Of a stretch of 64,000 nt of DNA, positions 3,748 through 38,688 are shown piece after piece. The number at the start of each line of letters is the position of its first letter. The first letter of the stretch is position 1. Source of the DNA: an uncultured delta proteobacterium (GTDB lineage: Bacteria > Desulfobacterota > Binatia > UBA9968); assembly GCA_963745035.1 (NCBI GenBank), contig CAVUVW010000014.1, forward strand, positions 576,001 to 640,000, given 5' to 3'. The translations under genes and the position numbers were made by a program. The notes below the pieces were generated by a model that worked only from the letters and a program-made list of their open reading frames with translations, did not search any database and had not been told where the DNA came from.

Positions 3748-3767
3748 TATTGGACCAAAGACCAATA
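3748..3767 (-). promoter_or_regulatory. Palindromic operator box 1 (TATTGGTCTTTGGTCCAATA on - strand), upstream of cNMP-patatin gene
   Basis: 15/16 match to TATTGGAC-N4-GTCCAATA; on - strand TACTAG starts at 3726, 22 nt past the box. Confidence 0.75.
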
Positions 3768-3948
3768 TCCAGGGCATGACACAGGGAACGCACCCAGTAT
3801 ACTGCCGAAGTCACGGCTGGCCAATTAAGAAGATGAGCCGCCCGCGCTAGTACGCAAATAGCCGGCGACTTCTGGACGTGCCCGTCTGTGAGCAGCGAAT
3901 GGCCGGAATTTCTCGAACAATCTTTGCTTAGATGCAGCGAGCCCGCCG

Positions 3949-3968
3949 TATTGCACCAAAGTCCAATA
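3949..3968 (+). promoter_or_regulatory. Operator box 2 (TATTGCACCAAAGTCCAATA), upstream of porin-carbonic anhydrase-mscS
   Basis: 15/16 match; TAGAAA starts at 3990. Confidence 0.8.
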
Positions 3969-4103
3969 TACAGATTTGCTGCTATTGGCTAGAAAGGACG
4001 GTATTACGCGAACTCAGACATAATTCATAATTGACGGCGATGTATCACCGAAATTTGCATGTTATCGAGCATTTTTAGGGTGACTTTAGTTAAGATAAAC
4101 ACA

Positions 4104-5460
4104 ATGAGCGGAACGGTTTTACTGTTTTGCATCGCCTTTTACCGCGCAGCTCTGGGCGGGCGAAGCGGCATTGTCGGCGCCATATTCCGGTAATCTTCTG
4201 ACCCGCACCACGCTCAGCGGCGATTGGGGTGGATTGCGCAACGAGTTGGCCGCCAAAGGCGTGACGATCGACATGAGCCTGACTCAGTCCGCGCAAGGCA
4301 TCGTTCACGGAGGCAAAGACACCGGCTGGCAGTACAGCGGCGGGCGCGGCGACATCATCCTCAACCTGGACACGCAGAAACTCGGCCTCTGGCCTGGCGG
4401 CTTTTTTAACCTCGAAGCGGAAGGCAATTTCATCCCCGCAGATAATTTACGCAAGTCTATCAACGGCAGAACCGGCGCGCTGATGTACGTCAACAACAGC
4501 CAAATATATCCGACAACCGCGGGCGACAACTTCAACTTGCCCGCATTAAACTTTACTCAAAATCTTTCACCGTACTTTGGTTTGACGATCGGCAAGTATG
4601 CCACAATCACCTCCAGCTCTGGAGATATGAACGAGTTTGCCCATGGCAAGGGCGACACGCAATTCATGAATATGGCATTCAACGTGAATCCGGTTACCGC
4701 CTTGACCGTGCCCTATTCCACCTTGGGAACCGGGGTGATCGCGTGGCCGACGAAAGATCCTAAGCAGGCGATATTGAGTTTTTATTTAATGTCATCGACC
4801 GGCAAAGCCAGCACCAGCGGCTTCGATGACTTGAACGACGACAATTTGACCTTTGCCGGCGAGGGGCAAATGAGAACGGACTTTTTCGGTTTGACCGGAC
4901 ATCAGCTTTTCGGCACGATTTTCTCGAACAGGGAATTTTCGTCGATCGACCAGAACGCGCGCTTCATCTTCGAGAACGGAGCTCTCGAAGGCAAGAAAGG
5001 CTCGTGGAACGTTTATTATAACTTCGACCAGTACGTCTACGAGCCTAAGAAAGGATCCGGAGAAGGCATCGGAATTTTTGGCCGCTTCGGCGCATCGGAC
5101 GGCAATCCCAACTTCATGCATTTTTTCTACAGCTTGGGGATCGGCGGCAAAGGGGTGATTGCCAACCGCGAACGCGACCAGTACGGCTTTGGTTTTTACT
5201 ACATCGACGTCAAAAATCCGGAACTTCGAGGTTTGTTTCGGAGCATCAAGTTACTGCGCGACGAGTACGGCTTCGAGGCTTTCTATAATATCGCCATCAC
5301 GCCGTGGCTGATGCTGACTCCTGACATTCAAGTTGTCCGAGGCGCGCAGAAGGAGCAAGTCACAATCGGACGCAGCCTCCCGGGAGTACCGTTCATCGCC
5401 AGCCGGAAAAGCATTGGCACCGCGACGGTTCTCGGACTGCGCATGCAGATGGTGTTCTGA
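4104..5460 (+). CDS. Carbohydrate porin (OprB family); signal peptide joined by +1 frameshift in T-run ~4137
   Basis: TLSGDWGGLRNELAAKG N-terminal motif, EAFYN...LTPDIQ, terminal Phe; ATG 4104 gives a signal-like MSGTVLLFCIAF. Confidence 0.8.
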
Positions 5461-5520
5461 AAAGGAAAGAGGTCGACGAACGAAAGAGAATAGACAACCA
5501 ACAAAAAGGACCAACTCAGA

Positions 5521-6258
5521 ATGACACGACTGAAAATTGCACTCGGGTTCATCCTGCCGCTTGCCATCGGCTCGACAAGTTCGGTGCTGGCGCAACATTG
5601 GAGCTATGAGGGCGACTCCGGACCGCAGAACTGGGGCAAGCTGGATGCGAAGTTTGCCGTTTGCGCCAGCGGCAAGAACCAGTCGCCCCTCGACCTCAGA
5701 AACTTTGTCGAGGCCGATTTGAAGCTGCTCAAGCTCGACTACAAGGCAGGTGCCGCGGACATCGTAAATACCGGCCACACGGTGCAGATCAATTACGCCC
5801 CCGGAAGCGCTCTCTCCGTCGACGGCATCAGTTTCGAGTTAAAACAATTCCACTTTCATTCACCCAGTGAAAACAAGATCAATGGCAAGCAGTTTCCGCT
5901 CGAGGGCCACCTGGTGCACGCCGATAAAGAGGGCGATCTCGCGGTTGTAGCGGTTATGATCGAGGAAGGTGCGGCCAATCCTCTGCTCACCAAGCTCTGG
6001 GAGAAGATACCGAAAAAGGGTGAAAAAGGGCCGGTCCCCGGCGGATTGAGCGTAACGCAACTGCTGCCGAAGGGTCGGGATTATTACCGCTTCGACGGCT
6101 CGCTCACGACGCCGCCGTGCAGCGAAGGCGTGCGCTGGTTCGTCATGAAGCGCCCCTCCACCGCTTCGAAGGCGCAGATCGAGCAGTTTTCCAAAACTCT
6201 GGGCTTTGCGAATAACCGCCCCGTGCAGCCGGCCAACGCGCGCGTCGTTCTGCGATAG
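5521..6258 (+). CDS. cah: Secreted alpha-class carbonic anhydrase
   Basis: Signal peptide, HWSY, QSP, QFHFH (Zn His), EGHLVH, GSLTTPPCSEGV, NNRPVQ. Confidence 0.95.
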   Translation: MTRLKIALGFILPLAIGSTSSVLAQHWSYEGDSGPQNWGKLDAKFAVCASGKNQSPLDLRNFVEADLKLLKLDYKAGAADIVNTGHTVQINYAPGSALSVDGISFELKQFHFHSPSENKINGKQFPLEGHLVHADKEGDLAVVAVMIEEGAANPLLTKLWEKIPKKGEKGPVPGGLSVTQLLPKGRDYYRFDGSLTTPPCSEGVRWFVMKRPSTASKAQIEQFSKTLGFANNRPVQPANARVVLR

Positions 6259-6611
6259 CGCGGCTACGGGAGAATTTGCATGCAGTGTTCGGCCGCAAAT
6301 TTCGAGTCGGGGGGCATGGTAGGATTTCGCCGACGCTGTGCAGGTCCGAAGCGATCTCGCGGCCGCGGTTTACCATCCGGTGCATGGCTGAGGGTCTTGT
6401 CCTTTCCTTTGTTGCAGTGTGAAATCCGTTTGTTGCGCGACGGGTGGATCGGATGAACGCGAAGATCTATCGAGAATTTCTCCACGAGGACAGAAAGGTG
6501 GCCTTTCCGAGAGCTGATAGCCGTTCGCTAGCAGACACCATTGCAAGCTCTAAGACTGCCAAACAACTTAAGATGAGTAGAAGCGCTGCTCGGCAACGCG
6601 GCGTGAACAGA

Positions 6612-8261
6612 ATGATGATTCTAAGGATCATGCGGCAGATGTTGTTGGCAAGCGGTTGGGCGTTGGTGTGGATCATGGTGAGCTTTGCGCCGCCGGCGTT
6701 CGCCGCGGAGGGAACTCAGGCTTCGGGTTTAGATGCGGAGCTGCCGTCCGCGCCCGTCGAGGTCGATGGCTATGTACTTTTTCGTGTGCGCGGCGCGTCG
6801 TTTTTTCCGGCGGAAAAACGCGCCGCGGCCATTGCAGAACGGATCGAGGCCTTCGCCGCTGACCCGAGCGTACGTGCCGACGCCGTCATTCCCGTCGAAA
6901 TTGAAAACGGCATTGCGATCATGGCGGGAAGTCAACGCTTGATGGTGGTGGTGGAAGAGGATGCCAAGCTGGAGTCCGTTGACCGCACGGTGCTGGCAAA
7001 GGGTATCGCGCGCAGCATAAGTCAGGCTGTTGCGCGGCATCGATACGCGCGCAGCCAGGAAGCGCTGATTCATAGTCTCCTGCTTGCCGCCGGCGCTACC
7101 CTGGTCTTCGCGGCGTTCATCGCACTCGTCCTATGGCTGTCAAGGCGATTGCACGCGGGCTTGGAGCGACGCTACCACAAACGCGTTCACTCGGTGGGCA
7201 TCCAGTCTTTTCAGATCGTCCGCGCCGAACAGATCTGGGGCACGCTCAAAAGATTCATCAATGGAACACGCCTGGCGGTTATCTTGGTGATGGGTTTTCT
7301 CTATCTGCAATACGTGCTCGCCTCCTTTCCCTGGACGCGAGGAGCTGCGAATCGATTGCTCACTTACGTCCTCGGTCCGATTGGCACGATGGGGCGGGGC
7401 ATTGCAAACGAGATCCCGGATATCATCTTCCTGGTCATCTTGTTTTTCGTCACGCGCTACGTGCTCAAATTGCTGCATCTCTTCTTCGCCGCGGTCGGGC
7501 GCGGCGAAGTCTCGTTTGCCGGTTTCGACCGTGACTGGGCCGATCCGACGTACAAGCTCCTGCGATTGGGGATCGTTATTTTCTCGGTGGTCGTCGCCTA
7601 TCCTTATATCCCCGGCTCAGGCTCGGAGGCGTTCAAAGGAATCTCCATCTTCGTCGGCATCGTTTTCTCGTTAGGCGCGTCCTCCGCCGTTGCAAATATG
7701 ATCGCCGGTTACATGCTGACCTACCGGCGCGTTTTCAGAGTCGGTGATCGCGTCAAAATCAACGACATCATGGGTGACGTCATTGAGACCCGGCTTCAGG
7801 TGACGCATCTGAGGACCGTCAAGAACGAGGAGGTGATTGTTCCCAATTCCACCATCCTCAGTAATGAAGTGGTGAACTACAGCTCGCTGGCGCGCAGAGG
7901 AGGGCTGATCCTGCACACCAACGTCGGTATCGGTTACGAAACGGCGTGGCGCCAAGTCGAGGCGATGCTCCTGATGGCCGCTGAGCGCACTCGCGGCTTG
8001 ATGAAAGATGCTCAGCCCTTCGTTCGTCACCAGGCGCTCAACGACTTTGCGGTGAACTACGAGATCAACGTTTACTGCGATGACGCCCAAAAGATGGGAG
8101 AGATTTACACCGATTTGCACCGGAATATCCTCGACGTGTTCAACGAATACGGCGTGCAGATCATGACTCCGGCCTATGAGGGTGATCCGCAAGAGCCAAA
8201 GGTCGTGCCAAAGGAGCAGTGGTTTAGCGCGCCGGCGAAAGTCGGTGCCGAATCAAAGTAG
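6612..8261 (+). CDS. Mechanosensitive channel, MscS family, with periplasmic N-domain (start approximate)
   Basis: TM segments followed by FRVGDRVKI, VIVPNS and IGYE MscS motifs. Confidence 0.9.
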   Translation: MMILRIMRQMLLASGWALVWIMVSFAPPAFAAEGTQASGLDAELPSAPVEVDGYVLFRVRGASFFPAEKRAAAIAERIEAFAADPSVRADAVIPVEIENGIAIMAGSQRLMVVVEEDAKLESVDRTVLAKGIARSISQAVARHRYARSQEALIHSLLLAAGATLVFAAFIALVLWLSRRLHAGLERRYHKRVHSVGIQSFQIVRAEQIWGTLKRFINGTRLAVILVMGFLYLQYVLASFPWTRGAANRLLTYVLGPIGTMGRGIANEIPDIIFLVILFFVTRYVLKLLHLFFAAVGRGEVSFAGFDRDWADPTYKLLRLGIVIFSVVVAYPYIPGSGSEAFKGISIFVGIVFSLGASSAVANMIAGYMLTYRRVFRVGDRVKINDIMGDVIETRLQVTHLRTVKNEEVIVPNSTILSNEVVNYSSLARRGGLILHTNVGIGYETAWRQVEAMLLMAAERTRGLMKDAQPFVRHQALNDFAVNYEINVYCDDAQKMGEIYTDLHRNILDVFNEYGVQIMTPAYEGDPQEPKVVPKEQWFSAPAKVGAESK

Positions 8262-8371: not shown

Positions 8372-8391
8372 TATTGGACCAAAGTCCAATA
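8372..8391 (+). promoter_or_regulatory. Operator box 3 (TATTGGACCAAAGTCCAATA, perfect), upstream of lipoprotein cluster
   Basis: Perfect 8-4-8 palindrome; TTCGC then TAGATT starting at 8413. Confidence 0.85.
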
Positions 8392-8894: not shown

Positions 8895-9636
8895 ATGAAG
8901 ACAACCACCCTGCGATGTTTGGGAGTCTTGGCGTTTTGTTTTTTCGCTGGCATGCGGCCAGACCGGAGTTCGCGAAGCCAAACGGATTCCGCAAACCGAT
9001 CTGCCGCGACCCGGCCGGATCCTCGTCTATGACTTCGCGGTGAGCGAGCAGGAAGTCAAAGGATATCAGGAAATCATGCGGCAACAGCCGGCGATCAAAG
9101 ATGTCGCCGAGCGTGAACGCCTGGTTGCGCAAGAAGTCAAGGATGCGCTGGCGGAGGAGTTGGTCGATGCATTAAAGCCGCTCGGATTCATCGTCGAGCG
9201 GGTGCCGCGCGGTACTCGCGTTAGCGATCACGATCTATTGATCGTCGGCCAGTTCATGACCGTCGAAGAAGGCAATCCGTCAAAGCCGTTTACGGTGGGC
9301 TTCGGCAGCGGCGCTTCGGGTGTCGGGACGGAAGTGCAGGTATATCAGGCGCCGCAATCGCGCAGAGTGCTGCAATTGATGACGCAATCGGACAGCGGCA
9401 AGCTGCCCGGCGCGGCGCCTCTGCTGGGCGCGGGGGCGGTAGCGCAGGGAGGAGTCAGCGCCGGAATGGCCGTGCCCAAGGCCACCGTTTCCGGCGTGAA
9501 AACATATCAATCGGTTGTCGCCCGGATGGCTGCAGCAAGCGGCAATCAGGTGGCACGTTACCTATCCGAGTTTTTTGCCAAGCAAGGATGGATCAGATCG
9601 GATCAGGTGCGAAAAGCGACGGTGATCACTGAATAG
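8895..9636 (+). CDS. DUF4410-like lipoprotein; +1 frameshift in T-run ~8940
   Basis: GAGGAG RBS; MKTTTLRCLGVLAF... joins LACGQTG...LPRPGRILVYDFAV and ORF 9040-9636 (VGFGSG, SGKLPGAA). Confidence 0.65.
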
Positions 9637-9722
9637 TTTAGCACGGCAGATGACGACAAGTTCCGCACGCAGGGAAGGATGGCGCCAGAGAAAAACCAAG
9701 AATTCGCTGGCCGAGGAGTCAG

Positions 9723-10115
9723 ATGACAATGGTTCAAGCACTGATGAAAATAGCACTGGCTAGAGCAATGCAACCGACTGCTCGCCGATGGCTCGGTATT
9801 ATTATCGTCGCAACGATCGCGTTTACCGGGTGCGTTGTCTACGAGCCGGTGCCTGTGCCGGCCCCGAGCACATTCGATCGTTCCTGGAACGCCGCCCTCG
9901 CCGCGGCACAGGACGAGGGCGTGCGGATTACTTCCGAGAATCGAGGCAGCGGAGTGATCCTGGGTTCTCGTAACGAGCAGGAGGTCACGATCAGCGTTCA
10001 GTCCCAGGCCGATGGCGGTGCGCGCGTGGAAATCAGTGCGCGCGGGCCGAAGGGCGCCGACACCGGCTTGGCTAATCGAATTTCCCGCGCCTACGACCGG
10101 CGCATGGGGAGATAA
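9723..10115 (+). CDS. Small hypothetical lipoprotein
   Basis: Hydrophobic segment with FTGC lipobox; true start may be the later Met (MQPT). Confidence 0.65.
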   Translation: MTMVQALMKIALARAMQPTARRWLGIIIVATIAFTGCVVYEPVPVPAPSTFDRSWNAALAAAQDEGVRITSENRGSGVILGSRNEQEVTISVQSQADGGARVEISARGPKGADTGLANRISRAYDRRMGR

Positions 10116-10158
10116 CACGCAGTTCGGATGGTCGCTCACGAATCTAAGGAGTACTCAT

Positions 10159-12042
10159 TTGGATCGCCATTCAATTCTATGGGTGCTGACGGCGCTACTG
10201 TTTCTGGCGGCCGGGTGCGCGACTCCGATCGGCGTCAATCAGGTCGATCGCGCTGTCGCGTATCGTTCGCTCACCGCCAATGCGATGTCGGCGGGGAGGG
10301 CAAGCTCTTTTTCGGCGCGCGAGCTGATGAACCGCGACTTGTACCAGCGCTTCGATGAAGATCCTGAGAATGCTCTCGCCGAACTGCACGCCGATCTGGC
10401 ACCGCAGGGCGATGAGGACCGCCTCTTCGCGCTCGCCGAGCTTTCTTTTCTTCACGCACTGAACAGCGGCAATCGCTCGTACTATCTCGCCGCGGCCGTC
10501 TACGCGTACTCGTTTGTCCTTCCAGGCAAGCGCGGCACCTCGCCAAGGGGCATCGACCCGCGGCTGCGTTGGGCGGTGGATCTGTATAACCAGTCGCTCT
10601 CCCAGGCTGCGAAATCGGATGAAGGACCCTACGCGGTCCCTATGGGCGGTACGTTCAAGCTTCCGTTCGGCGAATTGACCGTGGAATTCGACGAGCGCGA
10701 TCTCATCTGGTCGGGCTTCCGCATGAAGGATTTTATTCCCGCGGCAGATGTGGAAGTGCGTGGCTTGCGCAACCGCTACCGGACACCCGGCATCGGCGCC
10801 GCGCTCGCCGCTTCGATCGAGCCGATTGAGGGCGTGACGGATAAAAGCTCCATGCGCATTCCGCCCAGGCTCAGGATTCCCGTCACGGCCTTTTTGCGGC
10901 TCGACGATCCGCGCGCCGCTTTGGCTTCCGGCCGGTTGAAAGGGAAATTGGAATTCTACACGCAGGACTCGAGTCGGTCGCTCAAGATCGAAGGACTGGA
11001 CGTTCCGATCGAGTACGAAACCACTTCCGCTCTGGCCCTTACTTTGGAAGGCTCGCCGGTTTGGGATTTCGAGATCGCCGGTTTTCGCTCCGGTGACTTC
11101 ACCATCGGTGGAGCAAATCTCCGCGAAGGTCTGTTCATGCTCCATCCGCGCAAGGCCGGCCGGACCCCGGTCGTGCTGGTGCACGGAACAGCTTCGAGTC
11201 CGGCACGGTGGGCGGAGTTGGTGAATGAATTAGAGAACGACCCGCGATTTTGGCAGAATTATGAGATTTGGCTGTTCATGTACAATACGGGTAATCCCGT
11301 CGCTTATTCAGCGATGCTCCTGCGCGAAGCGTTGACCCGCGTTGTCAAAGAATTGGATCCGGACGGGACCGATCGGGGACTCCAACAGATGGTCGTCATC
11401 GGCCATAGCCAAGGCGGTTTGTTGACCAAGATGACGGCGATCGACAGCGGCATGCACCTCTGGCCTTTCAAGGTGCCGGCCGAAGAATTGGATGTCGAGG
11501 CGGAAAGTCGTGAGCTTCTGACCAATGCATTGCTGATCAAACCTCTGCCGTTTGTCCGCCGGCTGATCTTTATTGCAACGCCGCACCGGGGCAGCTATCA
11601 GGCTCTAGGGCTCTTGGGCAATTTGGCCTCCTGGCTGGTGCATCTACCCGGCCGCTTTACCAAATTGAGCCTGGAGCTGTTGACGCTCCAGAGCAAGGGC
11701 ATTCTTCTCGCCCCGGTGACCGGCATGCCGACCAGCGTCGATAATATGAACCCCAATAACCGCTTTATTCGAGCCTTATCGGCGATTCCCATCGCTCAGG
11801 GAGTAGTCGCCCACTCGATCGTCGGTGTCGATGGCAGCGGCCCGCCGGCGGAGGGTGGCGATGGTGTAGTCAAGTATTCCAGCGCTCACATCGACGGTGT
11901 CGAGTCGGAGAAGATCGTGCGCTCGGGGCACTCCATGCAGGGCAATCCGGAAACCATTCAAGAGGTGAAGCGCATCCTGACCGAACACGCCCAAAAAATT
12001 GCGGCGGGCGTTGAGAGCGGCATAGCCGGGTCCTTGCAGTAA
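10159..12042 (+). CDS. Alpha/beta-hydrolase lipoprotein (lipase/esterase-like)
   Basis: AAGGAG RBS + TTG start; LAAGC lipobox; VLVHG, GHSQGG nucleophile elbow, ATPHRGS, DGVV, catalytic His region SGHS. Confidence 0.85.
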   Translation: MDRHSILWVLTALLFLAAGCATPIGVNQVDRAVAYRSLTANAMSAGRASSFSARELMNRDLYQRFDEDPENALAELHADLAPQGDEDRLFALAELSFLHALNSGNRSYYLAAAVYAYSFVLPGKRGTSPRGIDPRLRWAVDLYNQSLSQAAKSDEGPYAVPMGGTFKLPFGELTVEFDERDLIWSGFRMKDFIPAADVEVRGLRNRYRTPGIGAALAASIEPIEGVTDKSSMRIPPRLRIPVTAFLRLDDPRAALASGRLKGKLEFYTQDSSRSLKIEGLDVPIEYETTSALALTLEGSPVWDFEIAGFRSGDFTIGGANLREGLFMLHPRKAGRTPVVLVHGTASSPARWAELVNELENDPRFWQNYEIWLFMYNTGNPVAYSAMLLREALTRVVKELDPDGTDRGLQQMVVIGHSQGGLLTKMTAIDSGMHLWPFKVPAEELDVEAESRELLTNALLIKPLPFVRRLIFIATPHRGSYQALGLLGNLASWLVHLPGRFTKLSLELLTLQSKGILLAPVTGMPTSVDNMNPNNRFIRALSAIPIAQGVVAHSIVGVDGSGPPAEGGDGVVKYSSAHIDGVESEKIVRSGHSMQGNPETIQEVKRILTEHAQKIAAGVESGIAGSLQ

Positions 12043-12214
12043 AGAGCGACTTTGCCCTGTCAATCAATACATCGATTGCGATGCGGATGGACATGCGAAT
12101 CTTATTGTTGTACGCAGAGTACGTTTCGCGTGCTCGCACGCCCGTGCTGGGAAAACTGGATTGCAGCGCGCTGCGGCGCCAGACAATGGGTTTGGGTCAT
12201 GGGAGGTAATTGAG

Positions 12215-12655
12215 ATGAATTCGAATCTCTTCAGGTCGGCCTGCGTTTCTCTGACGCTCGTCATGGCTCTCGGCTCGAGCTCCACGCTCTATGCCATCGA
12301 CAATAATCACCGGTACTTCGCCTACGGCCTCGGGCAACGGAGCTGCGAAGACTACGTGAAATTCAGAGAGAAAAAACTTGAATCCCTAGAACAAAAGCAC
12401 GAACGCTACACGAGGGATGAGCTTTACGAGATCGTCGATCGGATCGTCGAGCACTGGATCGCCGGGTTTCTCACCGCGCACAACTTCTACGTGAGCGACA
12501 CTTATGATGTCGCCGGAAAAACCGACATCAACGATATAGAGGCGCGGCTGGAGAAAAGCTGCCGGGCCAATCCGAAGCAGCGCTTCGCCGAAGCCATGAT
12601 CTCGGTCGTGCAGCAGCTCAACCCCCAGCGAGTAAGGGCGGAAGGCGTCAAATGA
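12215..12655 (+). CDS. Secreted helical protein with Cys pair, possibly HdeA/HdeB-like
   Basis: GGAGG RBS, signal peptide, SCEDY...WIAGF...CRANP pattern. Confidence 0.55.
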   Translation: MNSNLFRSACVSLTLVMALGSSSTLYAIDNNHRYFAYGLGQRSCEDYVKFREKKLESLEQKHERYTRDELYEIVDRIVEHWIAGFLTAHNFYVSDTYDVAGKTDINDIEARLEKSCRANPKQRFAEAMISVVQQLNPQRVRAEGVK

Positions 12656-12710
12656 GAATCATGGGAGGTCTGAAACTCGGTGTGGCAGAGAACCCGTTAA
12701 GGAGTCAGCA

Positions 12711-13194: not shown

Positions 13195-13214
13195 CATTGG
13201 ACTAAGGTCCAATA
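13195..13214 (+). promoter_or_regulatory. Operator box 4 (CATTGGACTAAGGTCCAATA)
   Basis: 15/16 match; TTCGC then TAAGCG starting at 13236. Confidence 0.85.
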
Positions 13215-14298: not shown

Positions 14299-14312
14299 CA
14301 GCGCGGATTGCC

Positions 14313-15008: not shown

Positions 15009-15098
15009 GTTAAGCGGACTGATCGCGAGTCCTTGCTGCTTAAGCGCCGCGCGCTCAAAGCAGGACGCTGTCGCGCAAGGATTCGGCATTGCGGCCCC

Positions 15099-27363: not shown

Positions 27364-30300
27364 ATGAAAAAAGCCGATGGAGAGGAGCAAAGGCCGGATG
27401 GTCACGATGACGCGAAGGCGGCATCGCTGAAGCCATCGCGGCGGCAGTTTCTCAAGGGGCTGACTACAGGCACCGTCGCGATCAGCGCCTTGACTCAGTC
27501 GGGCTGCGCTCCCGCCGTTCCTCCCCTCAAAACCCGCGGCGCGACCAATACGACGACGGTCTGTCCCTTCTGCGGCGTCGGCTGCGGCCAGGTGGTCTCC
27601 GCGCGCGGCGGCAAGGTGATCCACATCGAGGGCGATCCGGACCATCCGATCAGCGAAGGAACTTTGTGCAGCAAAGGCGCGGCCGGCATCCAGGTAGTGA
27701 ACAATTCGCGGCGCCTGCAAAAGGTGCTCTATCGCAAACCCAACGGCGCCAAATGGGAAGAAAAAAGCTGGGACTGGGCATTCGAGCGGATCGCCGCGCG
27801 AGTCAAAGAAACACGCGACAAGACCTTCAAGCAATCCCTCGACGGGCGTGTTGTTAACCGCACCGAGGCGATCGCTTGTCTCGGCGGCTCGGCCTTGGAC
27901 AACGAGGAGGCTTACCTCCTCGTGAAACTGATGAGGGCCCTCGGCCTGGTGTACGTCGAACACCAGGCGCGGCTCTGACACAGCTCCACGGTCGCCGGTC
28001 TGGCGGCCTCGTTCGGCAGAGGGGCGATGACCAACCATTGGGTCGACATGCTCAATGCCAATGTCGTCCTGATCATGGGCGGAAACCCGGCGGAGGACCA
28101 CCCCATCGCGATGAATTGGCTGGCGCGCGCCAAAGAGCAGGGCACCTACATCCTGCACGTCGATCCGCGTTTCAATCGCACCAGCTCGATCGCCGACGTG
28201 TTCGCCAAACTGCGCTCGGGCACCGATATCGCGTTCGTCGGCGGCATGATCAACTACGCCATAGAACATAATCGCATCCAGCAGGAATACGTACGCGAGT
28301 ACACCAACGCCTCCTGGATCGTCGGCGACGGCTACAGCTTCACGGACGGGCTGTTTGCCGGCTACGATCCCAAAACCAGCCGCTACGATCGATCCCAGTG
28401 GATCTACGCGCTGGACGCGCAGGGACGGCCGCGGCGCGACCCTACGCTCAAGCATCCCCGCTGCGTGTTTCAACTATTGAAGCAGCACTTCTCGCGCTAC
28501 AACCCCGACGCGGTGTGCCGGATCACCGGCACACCGAAAGAAAACTACCTGAAGGTGTGCGATCTCTACACCTGGACCTATGCTCCCGACCGGGCCGGCA
28601 CGTGGCTCTATGCCATGGGCACCGCGCAGCACAGCCACGGCACACAGAACATCCGCTCCTATGCCATCCTGCAGTTGCTACTCGGCAATATCGGCGTCGC
28701 CGGAGGCGGCGTCAATGCGATGCGCGGTGAGTCCAACGTACAGGGTTCCACCGATCAAGGCCTTAACTATGATGGCCTGCCAGGATACCTGCGGCTTCCG
28801 GTGGAGGGTGACATAGATTTAAAAACGTATCTTTCACGTGTAACGCCCATCAGCCACGATCCTACCAACAGCGCGAACTGGCTGCAGAACACGCCGAAGT
28901 ATGTCGTCAGTTTGCTGAAAGCGTGGTGGGGCGAGCACGCGACCAGAGAGAATGACTTCGACTTGGCTCACCTGCCGAAGCTCGGCAGTGGATTTCAAGG
29001 ACAGGGCTATGCGTTTCTCGCGCTCACCCACGCCATGCTTGCCGGCGAAATCAAGGGACTCTTTTGCTTCGGCCAGAACCCCGCGGTGGGCGGCGCCAAC
29101 GCGCGCTTGATCCGCGCCGGACTGGATAAGCTCGAGTGGATGGTGGGCGCGGACTTATTCGAGCACGAGACCGCGGGCTTCTGGAAGCGGCCGGGCGCGG
29201 ATCCGGCTCGAATTCCCACCGAAGTCTTCGTTCTGCCTGCCTGTTCCGGCGTCGAAAAGGAAGGCAGCATCGTCAACAGCGGACGCTGGGTGCAGTGGCG
29301 TCACCAGGCCGTCAAGCCCATCGCAGACAGCCGCCCCGACCTCGACATCGTCGACGGCCTCGCCAAGGCGATGAAGCGTGCCTACGAGAAGGACGGAGTA
29401 TTTCCGGAGCCGATCCGCCATCTCGCATGGGACTATGGAGAGCACGCCGACCCTCATCGCGTCGCGCGCGAGCTGAACGGGCGCTTCTTAGTCAATGTGG
29501 CTGAAAAGGACGGTAAAGAGTTCACTGCCGGCAAGCAGGTGCCGGGCTTTGCACAGTTGCGCGACGACGGCAGTACGATGTCGGGGAACTGGATCTACTG
29601 CGGCGGTTACACCGAAGAGGGCAATCTGGCCGCTCGGCGCGATACCACCGATGCGCCAAACAAGATCGGACTCTCTCCGAAATGGGCATGGACGTGGCCG
29701 ATGAACCGGAGGATTCTCTATAATCGCGCATCGGTCAATCGCAAAGGCGAGCCGTTCAACCCGCGCAAGTGGGTGATTCGCTGGAACGCCGAGAAGAATG
29801 CGTGGGAGGGCGATGTGCCCGACGGCGGCATGCCGCCAGGCGAGGCCAATCCCTTTATCATGCTGGCATCCGGAGTCGGACAGCTCTATTCGCCAGACCT
29901 CGTGGACGGTCCTTTTCCCGAGCATTACGAGCCGGTCGAGAGCCCGGTGAAAAACCCGTTCTCGAAAATTCAATCGAGTCCGTGCGCGCAGGTCTGGCAT
30001 TCCACCGAATTCGATCGCTATGGCAAACCCGATGTGTTTCCGATCGTCGCGACGACATACCGGGTTTCGGAGCACTGGCAGACCGGCGCCATGAGCCGCA
30101 ACATGCCCTGGCTTGCCGGCCTGGTACCGAGCCCCTTCGTCGAGATCGGCACCGCCTTGGCGAAGCGCCAAGGAATCGAGAACGGCGACAAGGTGATCGT
30201 CAGCAGCGCGCGAGGTTCCATCGAGGTCTACGCGCTCGTGACCGAACGGTTCCAACCGTTTTTTGTCGAAGGCCAGATGATCGACGAGATCGGCCTGCCA

Positions 30301-30435
30301 TGGCACTGGGGCTACGCCGGTCTCGTGCAGGGCGACATCTGCAATGATCTTACCGCCAGCGTCGGCGACCCCAACTCATACATCCCCGAGAGCAAAGTAT
30401 TTCTCTGCAACATCAAGAGGAAGGACCGAGCATGA
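27364..30435 (+). CDS. fdnG: Tat-exported formate dehydrogenase alpha subunit (FdnG type), selenocysteine at UGA 27976-27978; ~1023 aa
   Basis: SRRQFLK Tat motif, CPFCGVGC...C 4Fe-4S, EHQARL-UGA-HSSTV...FGRGAMTNHW in frame with ORF 28027-30435; RGESNVQG. Confidence 0.93.
27979..28008 (+). promoter_or_regulatory. Bacterial SECIS hairpin
   Basis: GGTCGCC-GGTCT-GGCGGCC stem-loop (27990-28008); the GGU CUG apex has the same spacing from UGA as the E. coli fdhF SECIS. Confidence 0.8.
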
Positions 30436-31241
30436 GCACACCCGCAGTGAAGCCGAAAGCGATGATTCAGGACAATACCCGGTGCATCGGCTGCCGCGCG
30501 TGCATGGTGGCCTGCAAGTCTTGGAATGACCTTCCGGAGGATAAGACGGACTTTTTCGCCGGCGACGGCTATCAGAACCCGCGCGATCTCGACGCCAACA
30601 ACTACAATCTCATCACCTTCAATGAGATCGTGACCGGCGCCAAGCCCGACTGGGTGTTCGGGCGCCAGCTCTGCATGCACTGCGAGCATCCCGCCTGCGC
30701 GTCGGCGTGCCCGACCACGGCGTTGACCAAAACGCCGATCGGCGCCGTCGTGTTCAACGAGGACCGCTGCATCGGCTGCCGCGCCTGCATGCAAGCATGC
30801 CCGTTCATCATTCCCAAATACGACTACAACAGCTTCGCGCCGAAGATCCACAAGTGCACGTTCTGCGCCGACCGTCTCGAGGTTGGCATGGACCCGGCCT
30901 GCGCGACCGTGTGCCCCACCGGCGCGATCAGTTTCGGCGATCGCGAAGATATGGTGACCGAAGCGAAGCGGCGCATCGCCGCCGCTCCGGGCACTTACAT
31001 TCCCGAAATCTATGGGCTGGAAGAGGTCGGCGGCACCAGCGTGCTGCACCTTTCTTCCGTCCCGTTCGAGCAGATCGGTTACATCACCAACCTGCCCAAG
31101 ACGCCCATGCCCGACCTCACGCACCGATGGCTACGCGTCACGGCTCCGGTGTTTGCCGTCTTGTACGCAGTGTTCGGCGCCCTGAATTGGATCGTGCGAC
31201 GACGCATGCGCCGCCAAGGCCACGAGGGAGAGCACGCATGA
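30432..31241 (+). CDS. Fdh beta / HybA-like four-cluster Fe-S subunit with C-terminal TM
   Basis: CIGCRACMVAC, CMHCEHPACASAC, CIGCRACMQAC, CTFC...CATVC; YGLEEVGGT. Confidence 0.9.
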   Translation: MSTPAVKPKAMIQDNTRCIGCRACMVACKSWNDLPEDKTDFFAGDGYQNPRDLDANNYNLITFNEIVTGAKPDWVFGRQLCMHCEHPACASACPTTALTKTPIGAVVFNEDRCIGCRACMQACPFIIPKYDYNSFAPKIHKCTFCADRLEVGMDPACATVCPTGAISFGDREDMVTEAKRRIAAAPGTYIPEIYGLEEVGGTSVLHLSSVPFEQIGYITNLPKTPMPDLTHRWLRVTAPVFAVLYAVFGALNWIVRRRMRRQGHEGEHA

Positions 31242-32419
31242 ACTGGCGCATCCGGCTGACGTGGTGGGATAAATTGCTGCTCGCGATCATTGCGGTGGCC
31301 GCCGTCGTCGGCTTCGTGCGGTTCGCGACCGGCATCGGCACAATCGCCAACATCAACAACGCCTACCCGTGGGGTTGGTGGGTCGGCTACGGCATCATGA
31401 CGATGATCGCCATCGGAGGTGTCGGCTTCACGATCACGGCCTTGGTCGAAATCCTCGGCGTGCACCGCTACCACTCTTTTTTGCGTCCGGCCGTGCTCAT
31501 GGCTTTTCTCTGCTATATCAGCGCGATCACCATGCTCATGGTGGAACTTGGCCGGCCGTGGAAAGTCTGGTTGGTGCTGGTTTCCTGGGCGCCGACCTCG
31601 GCGCTTTACGAAGTCGGCTGGTGCGCATTTTTGTATCTGACTGTGCTCGCTTTGGAATTCGCGCGGGTCCCTCTCGAGCAGGCCGGCTGGCGACGCGCGT
31701 TTCGCATCGTGAGCGCGATTTACATTCCAATCATGCTCCTCGGCGTGACGCTGTCGCATCTGCATCAGTCATCGCTCGGCACTTTGATGACGCTTATTCC
31801 GCACAAGGTGAACGAGCTTTGGTGGTCGGATAATTTGCCATTGGTCTATCTCTTCTCCGCGATGATGGCCGGACCGGCGATGGCAATCCTCGAGCATCTC
31901 GCGGCGGCGCGTTGGCTCGGCTTCGAGCCGCGCATGAATCTGCTCGCCGGCCTCGCGCGCATCGAAGCCTGGCTCGTCGGCCTCTTCTTCGCCTTCCAGA
32001 TGGGCGATCTTTTTTATCGTGGTGCTGCTGACGCTATGTTCATCAGTTCATGGTTCGCCGTTTCCTTTTGGGTCGAGATCGTTTTCGGCCTGATGCTCCC
32101 CTTTGTTCTACTGATGATGCCGGAAGTCCGCGAAACGCGGCGGGCGCTCGCCACAGCGTGTGCTTTGGTGATTGCGGGCGTGTTGCTGCATCGCCTCAAT
32201 GTGGCGGTCATCGGTCTGCGGGCACGTCACTGGGAAACCTATGTGCCTTCGTTGGGCGAGGTCACGATCACTCTCGGCATTACTGCAGCGGCAATATTTG
32301 CGTTCGGCTGGCTCGCGCGCATTCTTCCCATTCACGAAGAATTGCCTGCGCCCGAGACAAGGCCTCTTCCTGCGGGTCAAGTTGCCGGCACATGGCGCGG
32401 CGCCGAAGGAGTGTCTTGA
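31238..32419 (+). CDS. HybB-like NrfD/PsrC-family membrane anchor
   Basis: YPWGWW, ELGRPW, SALYEV, LSHLHQSSLG, LHRLNV, YVPS motifs; ATGA coupling to the upstream gene. Confidence 0.85.
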   Translation: MNWRIRLTWWDKLLLAIIAVAAVVGFVRFATGIGTIANINNAYPWGWWVGYGIMTMIAIGGVGFTITALVEILGVHRYHSFLRPAVLMAFLCYISAITMLMVELGRPWKVWLVLVSWAPTSALYEVGWCAFLYLTVLALEFARVPLEQAGWRRAFRIVSAIYIPIMLLGVTLSHLHQSSLGTLMTLIPHKVNELWWSDNLPLVYLFSAMMAGPAMAILEHLAAARWLGFEPRMNLLAGLARIEAWLVGLFFAFQMGDLFYRGAADAMFISSWFAVSFWVEIVFGLMLPFVLLMMPEVRETRRALATACALVIAGVLLHRLNVAVIGLRARHWETYVPSLGEVTITLGITAAAIFAFGWLARILPIHEELPAPETRPLPAGQVAGTWRGAEGVS

Positions 32420-33005
32420 TGACCACAGAACCACCTCCGCGGTTTCCCACTTTTCGCGTCATCGTCCTGCTCGTGCTGCTCGTCAATCTCATCCTCACCG
32501 TAGCCCTGGTGAGCCAGGTGCGCGAGCTGCAGCAGCGCGTTGCGAGCTTGCCTCCCGATCTCGCCGTCAAGCGCGACGTGGCCATGCTGCGGCCGCTCCG
32601 GATTCGCGAGATCATCACGCAGAACTGCGTGGAGTGTCACAGCACCCGGCGTCTCGGCGTGACGGTGTCCATGGAACCGTCAGAGGTCCAGCGCACAGTA
32701 GAGCGCATGCAAAACCACCCGGGCGCCAATATCCCGCCAGCGGAATTCGAGCGCATCACCGCTTCCCTGCTGGTGGCTCGCTGCGCGCGCTGCCACGGCG
32801 AGGAGACGCTTAACCTGATGGTCCTCAAGACCAGCCTGAGCGCTTGGCCACGATCCGTCGCATGGCGGCGCTCCCCGGCTCGGGCGTGCGGCACGATCAG
32901 GCGCTCGCCATTGCAGAAGCGTTCGAGAAGCTGATGAGCGACGGTGGCGACCGTGGTCGGACGGATGAGAAAAATAATTTGTCGACGGTTCAGCCGTCCC
33001 GGTAG
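32419..33005 (+). CDS. Membrane-anchored diheme cytochrome c; frameshift ~32832 (ORF as given ends 32934)
   Basis: N-terminal TM; CVECH...TVERM...PG and CARCH...(shifted frame) TIRRM...PG repeats. Confidence 0.75.
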
Positions 33006-33020
33006 TCACACGGGAGCAGC

Positions 33021-33590
33021 GTGCCAATTGAGATCCATGATGCTGTTCGAGGAAAAGTGACTTCTCGACAACATCTGTTACGGCTACCCGTGTCGCGATG
33101 GCGAGTCTTCGCCGTTCTCCTGCTGATGGCCGCGTGCCGCCCGCCCGCCGATCCCACGACACAGACTCCTGCCGGCGAATGGCGCGCGTTCGAGGGCACG
33201 TGGACCGCAGCAGGTACGCGCCGGACGCTGCACCTGGGCACGAATGACCGTGCGGCGATCTTCGAAATGACGGGATCCGTACTGCTCACCGGCGCACAAC
33301 GGCCGGCGGTCGGTTTCAGAGCACAGGCGATCGGCTTCTCCGACAGCCGCACAGGCATGCAAGGGCGCTCCGTCTGGACCGACGAGCGCGGCGACATGGT
33401 TTACAGCGAGTTGAAGGGCGAGTTCGTCGGCACCGGTAACCAGATCACAGGCACGTTCATCGGCGGGACGGGCCGTTACGCCGGCATGACTGGCGACTAC
33501 AGTTTTAAGTGGCAGTACCTGATCGATGCAGAAGACGGCGCGGTGAACGGGCGAGTCGTTGATTTCAAGGGCCGCGCGCGGTTCGGCTAG
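33021..33590 (+). CDS. Hypothetical beta-rich lipoprotein (start uncertain)
   Basis: LLLMAAC lipobox; GGTGRYAG motif. Confidence 0.65.
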   Translation: MPIEIHDAVRGKVTSRQHLLRLPVSRWRVFAVLLLMAACRPPADPTTQTPAGEWRAFEGTWTAAGTRRTLHLGTNDRAAIFEMTGSVLLTGAQRPAVGFRAQAIGFSDSRTGMQGRSVWTDERGDMVYSELKGEFVGTGNQITGTFIGGTGRYAGMTGDYSFKWQYLIDAEDGAVNGRVVDFKGRARFG

Positions 33591-33622
33591 GCCGCGATCG
33601 AGCCTGCAGAAGATCCCGCCAG

Positions 33623-35038
33623 ATGAATGTCGCCGCCGTCCATCGCCGCGAGCTAGGAAAACGAGCCCTGTCATTCGCCCTGGCACTCGGCATCTGGTTC
33701 GCGCCCATCCCGGCAGGCTTGACCCGTGAGGCCTGGCACCTCTTCGCGGTTTTCGCGGCAGCGATCTTCTCGGTCGTCGTGAATGCATTTCCGCTCCTGA
33801 CGGCCTCGCTGCTCGCCGTAGGCGCAGTCGTGCTGACTGGCACTGTCGAGCCGGCCAAGGCCTTTGCCGGCTTCGCGAACTCGAGCGTGCTCCTCGTCAT
33901 AGTGGCGTTCCTGGTAGCCCATGCGGTGGTGAAGTCCGGACTCGGTCGTCGCATCAGTCTGCTTGTGGTGAGCGCATTCGGACGATCCACGCTCGGACTG
34001 GGGTACAGCATCTTTCTAACGGACGCGTTGATCGCGCCGGCGTTTCCGAGCAATACGGCGCGCGCCGGCGTGCTCTACCCGATCATTCTTTCCCTGGCTC
34101 AGAGCGCTGGTTCCAAGCCGGATGATGCCAGCGGGCGCCGCATGGGCGGTTACCTCATGTTCTGCGGCATGGCGAGCCTGAGCGTCTCGTCGGCTCTATG
34201 GCTCACCGCCACCTCCGCCAACCCCATCGGAGTATCGCTTGCGGCGCAAGCCGGGATAAAAATCACCTTCGGCACGTGGCTGCTGGCTGCGTCGGTGCCG
34301 GCGCTGGCCGCCATAATTCTGCTGCCCCCGCTTCTTTGCTGGTGGTTTCCACCAGGAGGAACCGCCACGCCCGATGCGCCCGGGTTGGCGCGTAAGGAGC
34401 TCCACAGCATGGGGGCGCTCGCACGCGACGAGTGGATCGTCGCGGTGACTTTTGCAGTCATGGTGACCGGATGGGTGATGGCGGACAGCCTGCACCTGAG
34501 TCTTACTGCAGTGGCCTTTGCCGGCCTGGGAGTGCTCCTCGCAACCAATGTCCTCACGCTCGAGGACATCAACCTGCAGGGCAGCACGCTGGCCACCTTC
34601 CTCTGGCTGGCGGTACTTTTCGCGTTGAGCGGCCAGCTGAACGAGCTCGGTTTCATGGGTTACGTCGGCGGGAGGCTTACCACGATGCTCGGAGGCGTAG
34701 CCTGGCCGGTCGCGTATGTCGTTTTGCTGGTGCTCTACGTGCTGATGCACTATATGTTCGTGAGCCAGGCGGCGCAGGTCCTCGCGCTCTTCGGTGTATT
34801 TCTCGACGTCGCCGTGCGCACCGGCGTCCCCGCATCGCTGATGTCCTTTGCGCTGCTCTTCGCAAGCAGCTACTTCTCCACCATCACTCCGCAGGGCGGC
34901 AGCCAGAACGTCATCTTCGTAGGCAGCAACTACCTAACACAGGGCGAGCTCTACTGGCTTGGCCTGCTGACTACGGGGTTTTGCCTACTCGTGTTCCTGG
35001 TGCTGGGAACGCCCTGGTTACTGTTCATCGCAAGGTGA
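33623..35038 (+). CDS. DASS-family anion/dicarboxylate transporter (CitT/TtdT-like)
   Basis: KSGLGRRI, PAFPSNTAR-x-G, LTATSANP; many TMs. Confidence 0.9.
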   Translation: MNVAAVHRRELGKRALSFALALGIWFAPIPAGLTREAWHLFAVFAAAIFSVVVNAFPLLTASLLAVGAVVLTGTVEPAKAFAGFANSSVLLVIVAFLVAHAVVKSGLGRRISLLVVSAFGRSTLGLGYSIFLTDALIAPAFPSNTARAGVLYPIILSLAQSAGSKPDDASGRRMGGYLMFCGMASLSVSSALWLTATSANPIGVSLAAQAGIKITFGTWLLAASVPALAAIILLPPLLCWWFPPGGTATPDAPGLARKELHSMGALARDEWIVAVTFAVMVTGWVMADSLHLSLTAVAFAGLGVLLATNVLTLEDINLQGSTLATFLWLAVLFALSGQLNELGFMGYVGGRLTTMLGGVAWPVAYVVLLVLYVLMHYMFVSQAAQVLALFGVFLDVAVRTGVPASLMSFALLFASSYFSTITPQGGSQNVIFVGSNYLTQGELYWLGLLTTGFCLLVFLVLGTPWLLFIAR

Positions 35039-36939: not shown

Positions 36940-37425
36940 TATTAAGTGAGCCGCCGTAGCTGGCAACAAATGCCGGTCGGCTTATCCCGGCGACAGCTTG
37001 GCAGTAAAAGTTCAAGTTGCCGTGGAATATCCATCAGCTCACCTGGATTGTCAACGTAGAGTTTTTCGTTAAAAAGCCGACCGGCGCGGCAGCTTTTTTA
37101 CCTAACGATCGGCGGCCTATTTCGGCCAGACCATCGCAAAACTTCCGCAGGATTGAACTGTACGACGCTTCAATCGCCAGATGCAATTTCTCCGATAGGC
37201 TAATAGCGCAATGTTGAGAGCGAACGCGCCATACACCACTTGCTCATAACAATCGCTAGAAATGCCGATTGGCTGATGCTAAACGTTGACTGTTTCGAAC
37301 GCAGTGTTTATGACGCGATATATAGGCATCGTATCGGGTATGTTTGAACTAGCCTTAGCTCTGCTGCCCAACGCGACCTAGGAACTCTGCATCGCCCGCA
37401 CGGAACAACGTTCGAGGATAAGCCA

Positions 37426-38028
37426 TTGGCAGAGCACGCCGTTACGATTCTCATTATTCTGAGCGTTGTTCTTATCGGTCTGCTGATCGTTCGGCCGTCG
37501 CTTACCGCGGTCACCGGCGGCAAGATTCTAGCCTTTATCGCCCTATTTATTTTGCCGATCACCGCGCTAGCATTGGGCTCGGCGGTTCATCTCAAAGAGG
37601 CCACATCCACCAGCTTCTGTCTATCCTGCCATCCGATGGAGGCCTACGGAAATAGTCTGCGCATTGACGATCCAACCTATCTTCCCGCCTTCCACTTCCA
37701 AAACAATCTCATTTCGCGAAGTGAAGCTTGTTATACCTGTCATACTAACTACGCGATGTTTGGCGGCTTACACGCCAAGCTCGGCGGCCTCAAGCATCTC
37801 TACGTCTACTACTTCGGGACGGTCCCGGAAAAGCTCGCTCTTTATGAGCCTTACAACAATCGTGAATGCCTGCACTGCCACGACGGCGCGAGATCGTTTG
37901 AAGAAACCTCGCCTCACAAAGAAATGCGGGAGCAGCTGGGCACCAATGACATGTCATGTCTGACCTGTCATAACAAGATCCATGACGTTCCGCAGGTGGA
38001 CACGATGAAGCTGTGGAAAGGACCGTGA
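37426..38028 (+). CDS. NapC/NirT-family tetraheme cytochrome c
   Basis: Two N-terminal TMs; FCLSCHPM, CYTCH, CLHCH, CLTCH. Confidence 0.85.
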   Translation: MAEHAVTILIILSVVLIGLLIVRPSLTAVTGGKILAFIALFILPITALALGSAVHLKEATSTSFCLSCHPMEAYGNSLRIDDPTYLPAFHFQNNLISRSEACYTCHTNYAMFGGLHAKLGGLKHLYVYYFGTVPEKLALYEPYNNRECLHCHDGARSFEETSPHKEMREQLGTNDMSCLTCHNKIHDVPQVDTMKLWKGP

Positions 38029-38285
38029 TGATGGCCGAGATTACCTATCGATTGCAACGAAGGCTCAAGATCGCCGCTTACCTGCTGATTGCCGGGCTGC
38101 TGGTGGAAGCCGTGACGTTGTACTGGTCCAGCCCCCTGAGTTTCATGCTTTTCATCGGGGTCGGCGGAACTCTCATCGGTTTGGGCATCATCGTTTACCT
38201 CACGGCCATCGTTGACCCCATGAACCGGCCGAACGCGACGGCTGAAACAATGTTTCGAGGACGTAAAAGAACGAATTTCAAATGA
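38028..38285 (+). CDS. Small two-TM hypothetical protein
   Basis: Two hydrophobic segments; coupled to the stop of the upstream gene. Confidence 0.6.
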   Translation: MMAEITYRLQRRLKIAAYLLIAGLLVEAVTLYWSSPLSFMLFIGVGGTLIGLGIIVYLTAIVDPMNRPNATAETMFRGRKRTNFK

Positions 38286-38296
38286 GGAGAAAAGCA

Positions 38297-38500
38297 ATGA
38301 ACATAGCGCGTACATTAGCGATCAGCAGCATCGTTTGTTGTTCGGCTGGCCCGTTTCACGGGTTGTGGCCGCTGATGCCCAGGCGGGTAAGGTAGTGTAT
38401 GACAAAAATTGCGCGGGGTGCCACGGCGCCGACGGCAAAGGAAATCCGGTCTATGATCAAAGCTCCTCGGAGAAAAAGGCTTGAATATCGTCACTCTCAT
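38297..38500 (+). pseudogene. Degraded class I monoheme cytochrome c
   Basis: GAGGAG RBS, ATG 38297; shifted frame reads ADAQAGKVVYDKNCAGCHGADGKGNP (CXXCH 38410-38424), then frameshifts and truncation. Confidence 0.65.
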
Positions 38501-38668
38501 GTGGATCGTCACGCGGAGATCTCCGTGACTAGCTCATAGTTTCTTACTTACTGGACTCGTGCCAAAACCCCCTCGCAGTCGGCCGATTACTGGCGACTGT
38601 GCACCATCTTTCGACTCTTTTTCTTCGCGATCTTCACCGCGGCCTTTCTGCCCTGGGTGCTCGCGCCA

Positions 38669-38688
38669 TGTTGGACTAAGGTCCAATA
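38669..38688 (+). promoter_or_regulatory. Operator box 7 (TGTTGGACTAAGGTCCAATA), upstream of frd operon
   Basis: 15/16 match; TGA then TACGCG starting at 38710; extra half-site GTCCAATA at 38744-38751. Confidence 0.85.

Follow-up and report, generated by a model that had tools for sequence, protein, structure and literature searches.

Several regulators that carry a LuxR-type helix-turn-helix (HTH) and act on palindromic operators have been described, and they offer the closest comparisons for a 20-base-pair palindrome, hereafter the ‘box’, that recurs ahead of gene groups in a 64,000-nucleotide stretch of DNA from an uncultured delta proteobacterium of the Binatia. This stretch, which we call the window, spans C14:576001-640000 (contig CAVUVW010000014.1) of a genome of 7.43 Mb (G000). 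EL222 of Erythrobacter litoralis has the 12-base-pair consensus RGNCYWWRGNCY, taken here second-hand from an excerpted source (PMC10521638), and it is described in part of another source as activating sigma-70 promoters from a site that overlaps the −35 position (PMC5001607). For StyR and TodT, the operator ATAAAC-N4-GTTTAT is given in the available text of PMC5874301, and the StyR residues K175, V176 and H179 named there correspond to the conserved KVH-containing helix discussed below. FixL senses O2 via haem, according to an excerpt of PMC4999443. The DosS/DosT-DosR (DevR) system, as presented in parts of two sources (PMC4082495, PMC12071387), resembles the system examined here in having a LuxR-type response regulator, a palindrome of 18 to 20 base pairs whose core is of the GGAC/GTCC type, a regulon that is clustered and includes Usp proteins, and a haem sensor. 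By its description in the accessible portion of PMC12071387, the Lxa locus of Burkholderia cenocepacia is likewise large, clustered and tied to low oxygen, and it combines genes for Usp with metabolic, electron-transfer and regulatory ones. The same text names no operator for this locus and gives Usp as common to the DosR, Anr and Lxa regulons.

A first-pass annotation of the window had reported seven boxes, each matching at least 15 of 16 consensus positions. All seven are present, beginning at 3748, 3949, 8372, 13195, 17299, 27157 and 38669, with zero or one mismatch to TATTGGAC-N4-GTCCAATA. The window holds no further site with up to three mismatches, and shuffled versions of it contain 0.15 sites on average and two at most. 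Genome-wide, nine sites have no mismatch, 11 have one, four have two and seven have three, and 23 of the 24 sites with at most two mismatches fall inside a 160-kb island around the window (C14:510407-670020). The enrichment scan that the first-pass annotation proposed bears this out: with a position weight matrix built from the seven window sites, the 24 genome sites score 24.8 to 36.6 bits, above a reversed-genome maximum of 20.5. Each of the 24 is intergenic, as had been claimed for the seven, when genes are called with our own simple gene caller, and this in an island that is 81% coding and has 107 of its 126 open reading frames (ORFs) of at least 300 nucleotides on the plus strand. The half-site on the gene side, GTCCAATA, is invariant as first proposed, provided that the site at 3748 is read leftwards. 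The spacer is also conserved and oriented (YAAR), which gives the full consensus TATTGGACYAARGTCCAATA. The palindrome is real, and its regulon reaches far past the window.

The sole box outside the island, at C13:352881 (L009:9881-9900), lies ahead of an OmpA-family gene that is followed by a PLD-family gene. At C14:651362 and 651390 (L006:15362-15409), two boxes stand back to back, 28 base pairs apart, between divergent PLD-family and GH63-like genes, and close pairs resembling this one are also present in genome G107.

The boxes occupy a fixed place relative to a promoter-like element. A TA dinucleotide is found 21 to 23 bases past the box on the YAAR side at 23 of the 24 sites in this genome and at 109 of 118 foreign sites. 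The opposite side has it at 2 of 24 and 19 of 118, respectively, and the intergenic background is 9.8%. The exception among our own sites is 3748, whose TA is on the left, toward ORFs for cNMP-domain and patatin proteins. With the TA used for alignment, 80 of 132 cases have T as their sixth base, as in the sigma-70 −10 hexamer; except at the T, the A and the last T, these hexamers are weakly consensus-like. The −35 position then takes in the final two bases of the box plus the four that follow, where T/G, A/C and C are favoured. The centre of the box would thereby lie near −43.5, and because such a box overlaps the −35 position, its arrangement would be that of a class II activator, with lux-box geometry. 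The fixed, one-sided spacing expected of such an activator, whose site is centred near −42 and overlaps −35, is seen in the sequence.

The first-pass annotation had also postulated a single factor of the LuxR/NarL superfamily behind all of the boxes, and a good candidate exists. P0001 is a 215-amino-acid response regulator encoded at C14:519224-519871, about 57 kb upstream of the window and at the upstream end of the island. It has a receiver domain (PF00072) and a GerE/LuxR HTH (PF00196), as do NarL/FixJ (LuxR-HTH) response regulators, and a gene for a PAS-HisKA-HATPase kinase (P0002) directly precedes it. The P0001 gene is followed by a box at C14:519937 and then by a gene for a single-receiver protein. 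No other intact LuxR-type protein of the genome carries its recognition helix, EKTIKVHRAR, and the other LuxR HTHs are at most 42% identical to that of P0001, barring a remnant and a 30-residue fragment on contig C25.

The single-receiver gene (C14:519996-520436; L003:1-436) follows the regulator and box here, in many relatives and in foreign loci. Its product may be a FixT-like feedback element, a role that we assume by analogy. The remnant comprises 53 codons of a second regulator HTH (C14:510214-510375; L002:10214-10375) and immediately precedes the island's first box; the two together repeat the layout of a regulator followed by a box.

A connection between P0001 and the box comes from 45 loci that were chosen by protein similarity to P0001, with its own locus included. 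All 17 loci whose regulator carries the helix EKT[IV]K[VI]HR[AS]R have a perfect 16-base-pair core 89 to 517 base pairs downstream. Conversely, none of the 28 loci with other helices has a site with up to one mismatch, one of these loci ending 55 base pairs off at a contig end, and five of the 28 carry altered dyads at two mismatches. In a FastTree phylogeny of 69 regulators, an 18-member clade in which every member has a box is supported at 0.93, or at 0.97 on receivers alone; its deep branches are weak, and therefore no conclusion is drawn on ancestry or transfer. In this larger set, the corresponding counts are 31 of 34 against 0 of 35. Because 17 of its loci came from records selected by their box, that table is partly circular, and we rely instead on the 45-locus test. 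Presence and absence across genomes follow a similar pattern. Among 22 family genomes that are at least 90% complete, six bear boxes and five of these six have a P0001 orthologue of 67 to 73% identity, and the 16 box-less genomes have no P0001 match above 51%. It therefore seems very probable, from this linkage between helix and operator, that P0001 binds the box.

Five paralogous loci (L032, L035, L031, L171 and L180), among whose helices are ERTIKAHR, EKTIKFHR, EKTIKQHR and EKTIKVHRG, have altered dyads 24 to 152 base pairs downstream. The changes are to GTAC, to GCAC or in the outer arms, and they hint at a recognition code.

The same box and regulator occur well outside the genus. With one mismatch allowed, the box pattern is found in 18 of 24 genomes of the same genus and in 1 of 16 others of the order, and a backwards control is found once in 41. 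An exact 18-base pattern is present in 9 of 251 genomes of the class. The exact 20-mer occurs in at least 117 loci of GTDB genomes, against a chance estimate of about four, and among the 80 matches listed it occurs in at least nine phyla, although the labels of metagenome-assembled genomes can be wrong. The taxa among these matches include Binatia, several Desulfobacterota groups, Paraburkholderia, Caballeronia, and Alpha- and Gammaproteobacteria; further matches are labelled Acidobacteriota, Verrucomicrobiota, Planctomycetota, Rokubacteria/Methylomirabilis, Aminicenantes, a Bacteroidetes, an actinomycete and a Heliomicrobium bin. Homologues of island proteins turned up in 67 of the 117 matched loci listed; with a control stretch of the same length, the count was 2 of 117. 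Five foreign genomes were tested: in three of them the best regulator match is 28 to 670 base pairs from a box, and in the other two the distances are about 2 kb and 21 kb. Linkage of regulator and box was seen in Caballeronia, Paraburkholderia and Desulforhabdus genomes. Three of 63 plasmid matches were examined. On the symbiotic plasmid of P. phenoliruptrix, a regulator with the same helix is accompanied by three boxes within 12 kb (24.6 kb scanned), and no box was found in the 16.6 kb scanned for each of two rhizobial regulators whose helix is of the EITVK type. P. phenoliruptrix BR3459a has the P0001 orthologue WP_015004202.1.

Comparison with the described systems places P0001 in the StyR/FixJ subfamily, with a DNA specificity that among characterised proteins appears closest to that of EL222. 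The recognition helices of P0001 and EL222 (EKTVKMHR) are nearly identical, agreeing at 7 of 8 residues of EKT.K.HR when I and V are counted alike. The core of the box fits RGNCYWWRGNCY perfectly at 22 of the 24 sites and with one mismatch at the other two, and EL222 activates, as P0001 would, from a site that overlaps −35. However, EL222 is a one-component LOV-HTH light sensor, whereas P0001 carries a receiver domain and is served by a cognate kinase. The box of P0001 also has strict outer arms (TATT...AATA) that are missing from the EL222 consensus.

StyR (1YIO) is the best match to whole P0001 in the PDB (E=3.5e-59), ahead of FixJ (1.9e-43), and on the HTH alone the values are 1e-16 for StyR, 3e-11 for EL222 and 0.0014 for DosR. 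The StyS/StyR and TodS/TodT systems also share with ours a dyad that has a 4-base-pair spacer. Their helix differs (EVTVKVHRHN in StyR), their targets lie in aromatic catabolism, unlike those seen here, and P0002 has no internal receiver. The StyR/TodT operator was rejected as an identity for the box: the window contains one match to it, with two mismatches, against 0.63 expected by chance.

For FixL/FixJ of rhizobia, Caulobacter and Burkholderia, the likeness consists of the best NCBIfam families, a haem-type PAS with His and Arg, and adjacent kinase and regulator genes. Assignment as a FixJ equivalog was rejected, as P0001 reaches 216 bits against a cut-off of 255 (NF006900), the FixJ helix PRTIEV differs, and so do the sites published in the excerpts consulted (PMC4999443, PMC13327599). 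P0002 falls short of the sens_FixL_Rhizob cut-off, with 422 bits against 850. Furthermore, where FixJ works mostly via fixK and nifA, P0001 seems to act directly on about 24 promoters, and only some P0002 orthologues have the haem PAS.

The kinship with DosR that the first-pass annotation had suggested does not hold. Against the DosR consensus given there, all 24 sites have 6 to 9 mismatches of 20; the HTH is distant, with EL222, StyR and FixJ closer; and P0002 is a HisKA kinase with a PAS rather than a GAF haem domain (no GAF match was found in P0002). An FNR/FixK regulon was likewise rejected for the window, in agreement with the earlier reading, since TTGAT-N4-ATCAA has no site there within one mismatch. 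A search of the literature, which logos or motifs confined to supplements would escape, showed no description of the motif among the best-ranked matches listed, and the regulon with its operator is apparently undescribed in print, as the first-pass annotation had surmised.

From these comparisons and the promoter geometry, we consider it likely that the box is the operator of P0001, a StyR/FixJ-subfamily regulator that drives the low-oxygen, pH and envelope genes of the island. Under this model, the kinase P0002 would phosphorylate P0001, and the phosphorylated protein would dimerise and bind the dyad with one half-site per subunit. The dimer, overlapping −35, would recruit sigma-70 RNA polymerase as a class II activator, like LuxR at the lux box. 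Some 24 promoters, almost all of which lie within a single co-oriented island of 160 kb, would be switched on jointly, and the output would comprise anaerobic respiration (formate dehydrogenase-N, NrfHA and fumarate reductase), proteins of the envelope and of stress responses, and the handling of pH and ions.

The architecture of P0002 offers a guide to the signal. This 1229-amino-acid membrane kinase (C14:515460-519149) has an N-terminal domain like ABC substrate-binding proteins, a likely membrane helix read from its residues, five PAS domains, HisKA and HATPase. Its fourth PAS (residues 729 to 851, approximately) matches 14 PDB sequences, 13 of which are FixL or DosP, and His785 and Arg805 align with His77 and Arg97 of DosP. 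We take these to be the haem ligand and the O2-stabilising residue, respectively, and on sequence evidence alone P0002 thus has the proximal His and distal Arg of a haem-b PAS. A haem PAS of the FixL/DosP type, together with Frd, Fdh-N, NrfHA, Usp and PPK2 targets, makes low oxygen the best guess here, and falling oxygen appears to be the most likely trigger in this genome, a proposal in which we place moderate confidence. Oxygen is probably combined with a second, extracytoplasmic signal. A second kinase, of MASE1-PAS type, is encoded at C14:526584. Orthologous kinases (L197-L210 and L194) differ by whole PAS modules and have one to five PAS domains, and in genome G018 two kinases stand in tandem before the regulator.

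It is possible, if less probable, that the regulator and box operate as proposed and that the main signal is instead acid, pH or an extracytoplasmic ligand at the N-terminal domain of the kinase. The respiratory genes would then have been recruited as proton consumers or ammonia releasers (NrfA, AspA), and the haem PAS would be an optional module. The conservation of the kinase is consistent with this proposal, as all or part of the N-terminal domain is retained at 11 of the 17 orthologous loci but the haem PAS at only six. So is the content of the island, which includes two carbonic anhydrases, two SulP proteins, a Ca2+/H+ exchanger, an HdeD-like protein, AspA and an ion channel, and so are the boxes of the P. 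phenoliruptrix plasmid, which face genes for a cation:proton antiporter, a TrkA-C-domain protein and DUF3300-DUF2950. However, the haem PAS retains both key residues here and in six relatives, and Usp, PPK2, phosphoketolase and the anaerobic reductases suit a hypoxia programme.

Relatives show how much of the regulon is shared. Beyond the window, the island encodes a Mla-type ABC system, DUF3300/DUF2950, sulfatases, glycogen phosphorylase, phosphoketolase, glucose-6-phosphate dehydrogenase, and PLD-family, Usp and SYLF lipoprotein genes. In two relatives whose contigs are long, islands of about 100 to 115 kb draw on the same gene pool in a different order; of the 152 island proteins here, 70 have a homologue in one of these relatives and 35 in the other. 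Conservation ahead of orthologous operons was confirmed for fdnG: among the 38 family genomes searched, four carry this gene and all four have a box upstream with zero to two mismatches. The gene frdC occurs in six of the 38, all box-bearing, and nrfA in nine. Anaerobic respiration, to which the first-pass annotation gave too much weight, is therefore accessory to the regulon; the shared core across relatives consists of envelope, transport and stress genes. Genome G018 has a box directly before frdC. In G003, G011 and G019, a co-oriented box lies 8.6 to 8.9 kb upstream of nrfA, and G003, in which the intervening genes were checked, repeats the order box-RND-OEP-nrfHA. The frd region shares 87 to 93% protein identity with its counterpart in G003, and the frdC of G018 is 98% identical, as against 54 to 78% for regulator and kinase domains, which suggests a recent exchange of island modules.

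A number of observations weigh against the model. Genome G006, in 430 contigs, has boxes and no regulator match, and the fragmented genomes G011, G012, G013, G016 and G022 each have at least one site and no match at E<=1e-55. Related genomes are also non-independent observations. Only two of the six frdC genomes have a box directly upstream of this gene; among the loci that do not, two end at a contig edge, a distance of 10 kb separates the gene from the box upstream of it in G003, and in G213 the nearest 1.3 kb are free of boxes. Three of the nine nrfA genomes are box-less. No box lies directly ahead of the P0002 gene. The haem PAS is missing from 11 of the 17 orthologous kinase loci, and oxygen therefore cannot be the signal for the whole family. 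Finally, several genes are split, namely those for the RND proteins (17443-21849), cNMP-patatin (1668-3552), a Na/Ca exchanger (35739-36692) and sulfatases (L003:13757-19138), with splits in G003 falling at different places. These interruptions may be assembly indels or decay, and part of the regulon may accordingly be decaying or mis-assembled.

A repressor could also occupy such a site. If P0001 bound the box and covered −35, with the genes coming on upon its release, the overlap of about 2 base pairs with the −35 position would be explained, and R. palustris FixJ can repress when unphosphorylated, according to the part of PMC13327599 available. However, across phyla the spacing stays within 1 base pair and is one-sided; contact with polymerase demands such constancy, whereas a repressor has no need of it. 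The region between −35 and −10 contains no box, nor does that downstream, and the −10 hexamers are only weakly consensus-like. We regard repression as unlikely, and the pattern of sites suggests with good confidence that the regulator activates.

It is less plausible still that another factor binds, such as the AraC protein of the island, a Crp/Fnr-type protein or an alternative sigma factor, and that the regulator gene is a mere neighbour. An AraC gene is found within the island here and beside it in G003, and the fragmented box-bearing genomes that lack a regulator match would fit. Against this, the box tracks the type of helix rather than neighbourhood alone, its core fits an experimentally derived EL222 consensus, the cNMP protein of the window has no HTH match, and, from general knowledge, a perfect dyad is unsuited to recognition by AraC or sigma factors. 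A recombination or mobile-element site (a cassette junction, an insertion-sequence end or a repetitive extragenic palindrome) is highly improbable: the sites do cluster in an island whose gene order is shuffled among relatives, but their flanks share only promoter-like positions, every site faces a gene start, the one-sided −10 spacing largely refutes it, no tRNA is present in C14:480001-696000, and no scanned protein has an integrase or transposase Pfam match.

Within the window, box 1 (3748..3767, minus strand) faces left to the cNMP-domain and patatin ORFs (3552..1668, by Pfam), with its −10-like TA on the left only; the fixed spacing predicts a −10 hexamer, TACTAG, at 3721..3726 on the minus strand. 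The other six boxes are on the plus strand. Box 2 (3949..3968; predicted −10 at 3990-3995) heads genes for an OprB porin, carbonic anhydrase and MscS (4171..8261), and box 3 (8372..8391; predicted −10 at 8413-8418) heads those for a DUF4410 lipoprotein, an alpha/beta-hydrolase-like protein and glycine-zipper proteins (9040..13043). Box 4 (13195..13214; predicted −10 at 13236-13241) precedes an unknown ORF, SpoIIAA-like and M48-like genes, an SDF/DAACS transporter gene and SBP_bac_3 pieces (13473..17262). Box 5 (17299..17318; predicted −10 at 17340-17345) stands before RND adaptor and permease genes in several ORFs, OEP, an unknown ORF and nrfH-nrfA (17443..25858). Most of the gene labels of the first-pass annotation are upheld by Pfam or NCBIfam matches (cNMP, patatin, OprB, carbonic anhydrase, MscS, SpoIIAA/STAS, SDF/DAACS, RND, nrfHA, fdnG and frdCAB); that of M48 is weak, and the ORF at 13473, labelled ‘DUF1134’, has no Pfam match at E<=0.01.

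Box 6 (27157..27176; predicted −10 at 27198-27203) heads genes for the formate dehydrogenase-N alpha subunit with an in-frame TGA, a HybA/HmcB-like iron-sulfur protein, an NrfD-like subunit, cytochrome c and a DASS transporter (27364..35038). The alpha-subunit gene fdnG (27364..30435, plus strand) reads as a single gene of 1023 codons with one in-frame TGA, at codon 205, which probably encodes selenocysteine, the residue that occupies this position in FdnG. Box 7 (38669..38688; predicted −10 at 38710-38715) heads frdC-frdA-fumC-frdB-DASS, in which fumC sits between frdA and frdB of the frdCAB operon (38786-44225). The co-oriented run continues with genes for aspA, DASS, HdeD-like, Ca2+/H+ exchanger, ion channel, PPK2, MgtC and SulP proteins, and it extends beyond the end of the window. 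The intergenic segments 39691-39725 and 35679-35710 draw many unrelated metatranscriptome contigs and are probably common terminator or repeat hairpins. The four metatranscriptome runs searched, each in small share, consist of assembled contigs, mostly 90 to 95% alike and thus from relatives; because such contigs yield no start site, strand or level, they carry no evidence on box activity.

The mechanism itself, a two-component system with class II activation, is conventional. A bolder and rather doubtful reading is that this is an old cross-phylum master switch with a constant helix and operator, which, with no part played by FNR or FixK, directly controls a programme of survival in low oxygen and acid resembling that of DosR. 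Equally tentatively, its targets would be gathered in a co-oriented island of 100 to 160 kb, and its kinase would gain and lose the haem PAS as a module. If this were true, the switch would have been overlooked because it resides mostly in uncultured soil and sediment bacteria, and the helix changes of paralogues beside altered palindromes would amount to a readable recognition code and to the origin of EL222 specificity. The match to EL222 also supplies a natural high-consensus site for a helix of that type. Our analysis links an exact operator of wide occurrence to a regulator from the large unassigned part of the ‘FixJ family’, and because the regulator and boxes are present in cultured Paraburkholderia and Caballeronia, the model is directly testable. 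It also places unknown envelope genes (DUF3300, DUF2950, DUF3604, DUF4410 and SYLF lipoproteins) in one stress programme, and it suggests how soil bacteria of the Binatia type turn on fumarate, formate and nitrite-ammonifying respiration.

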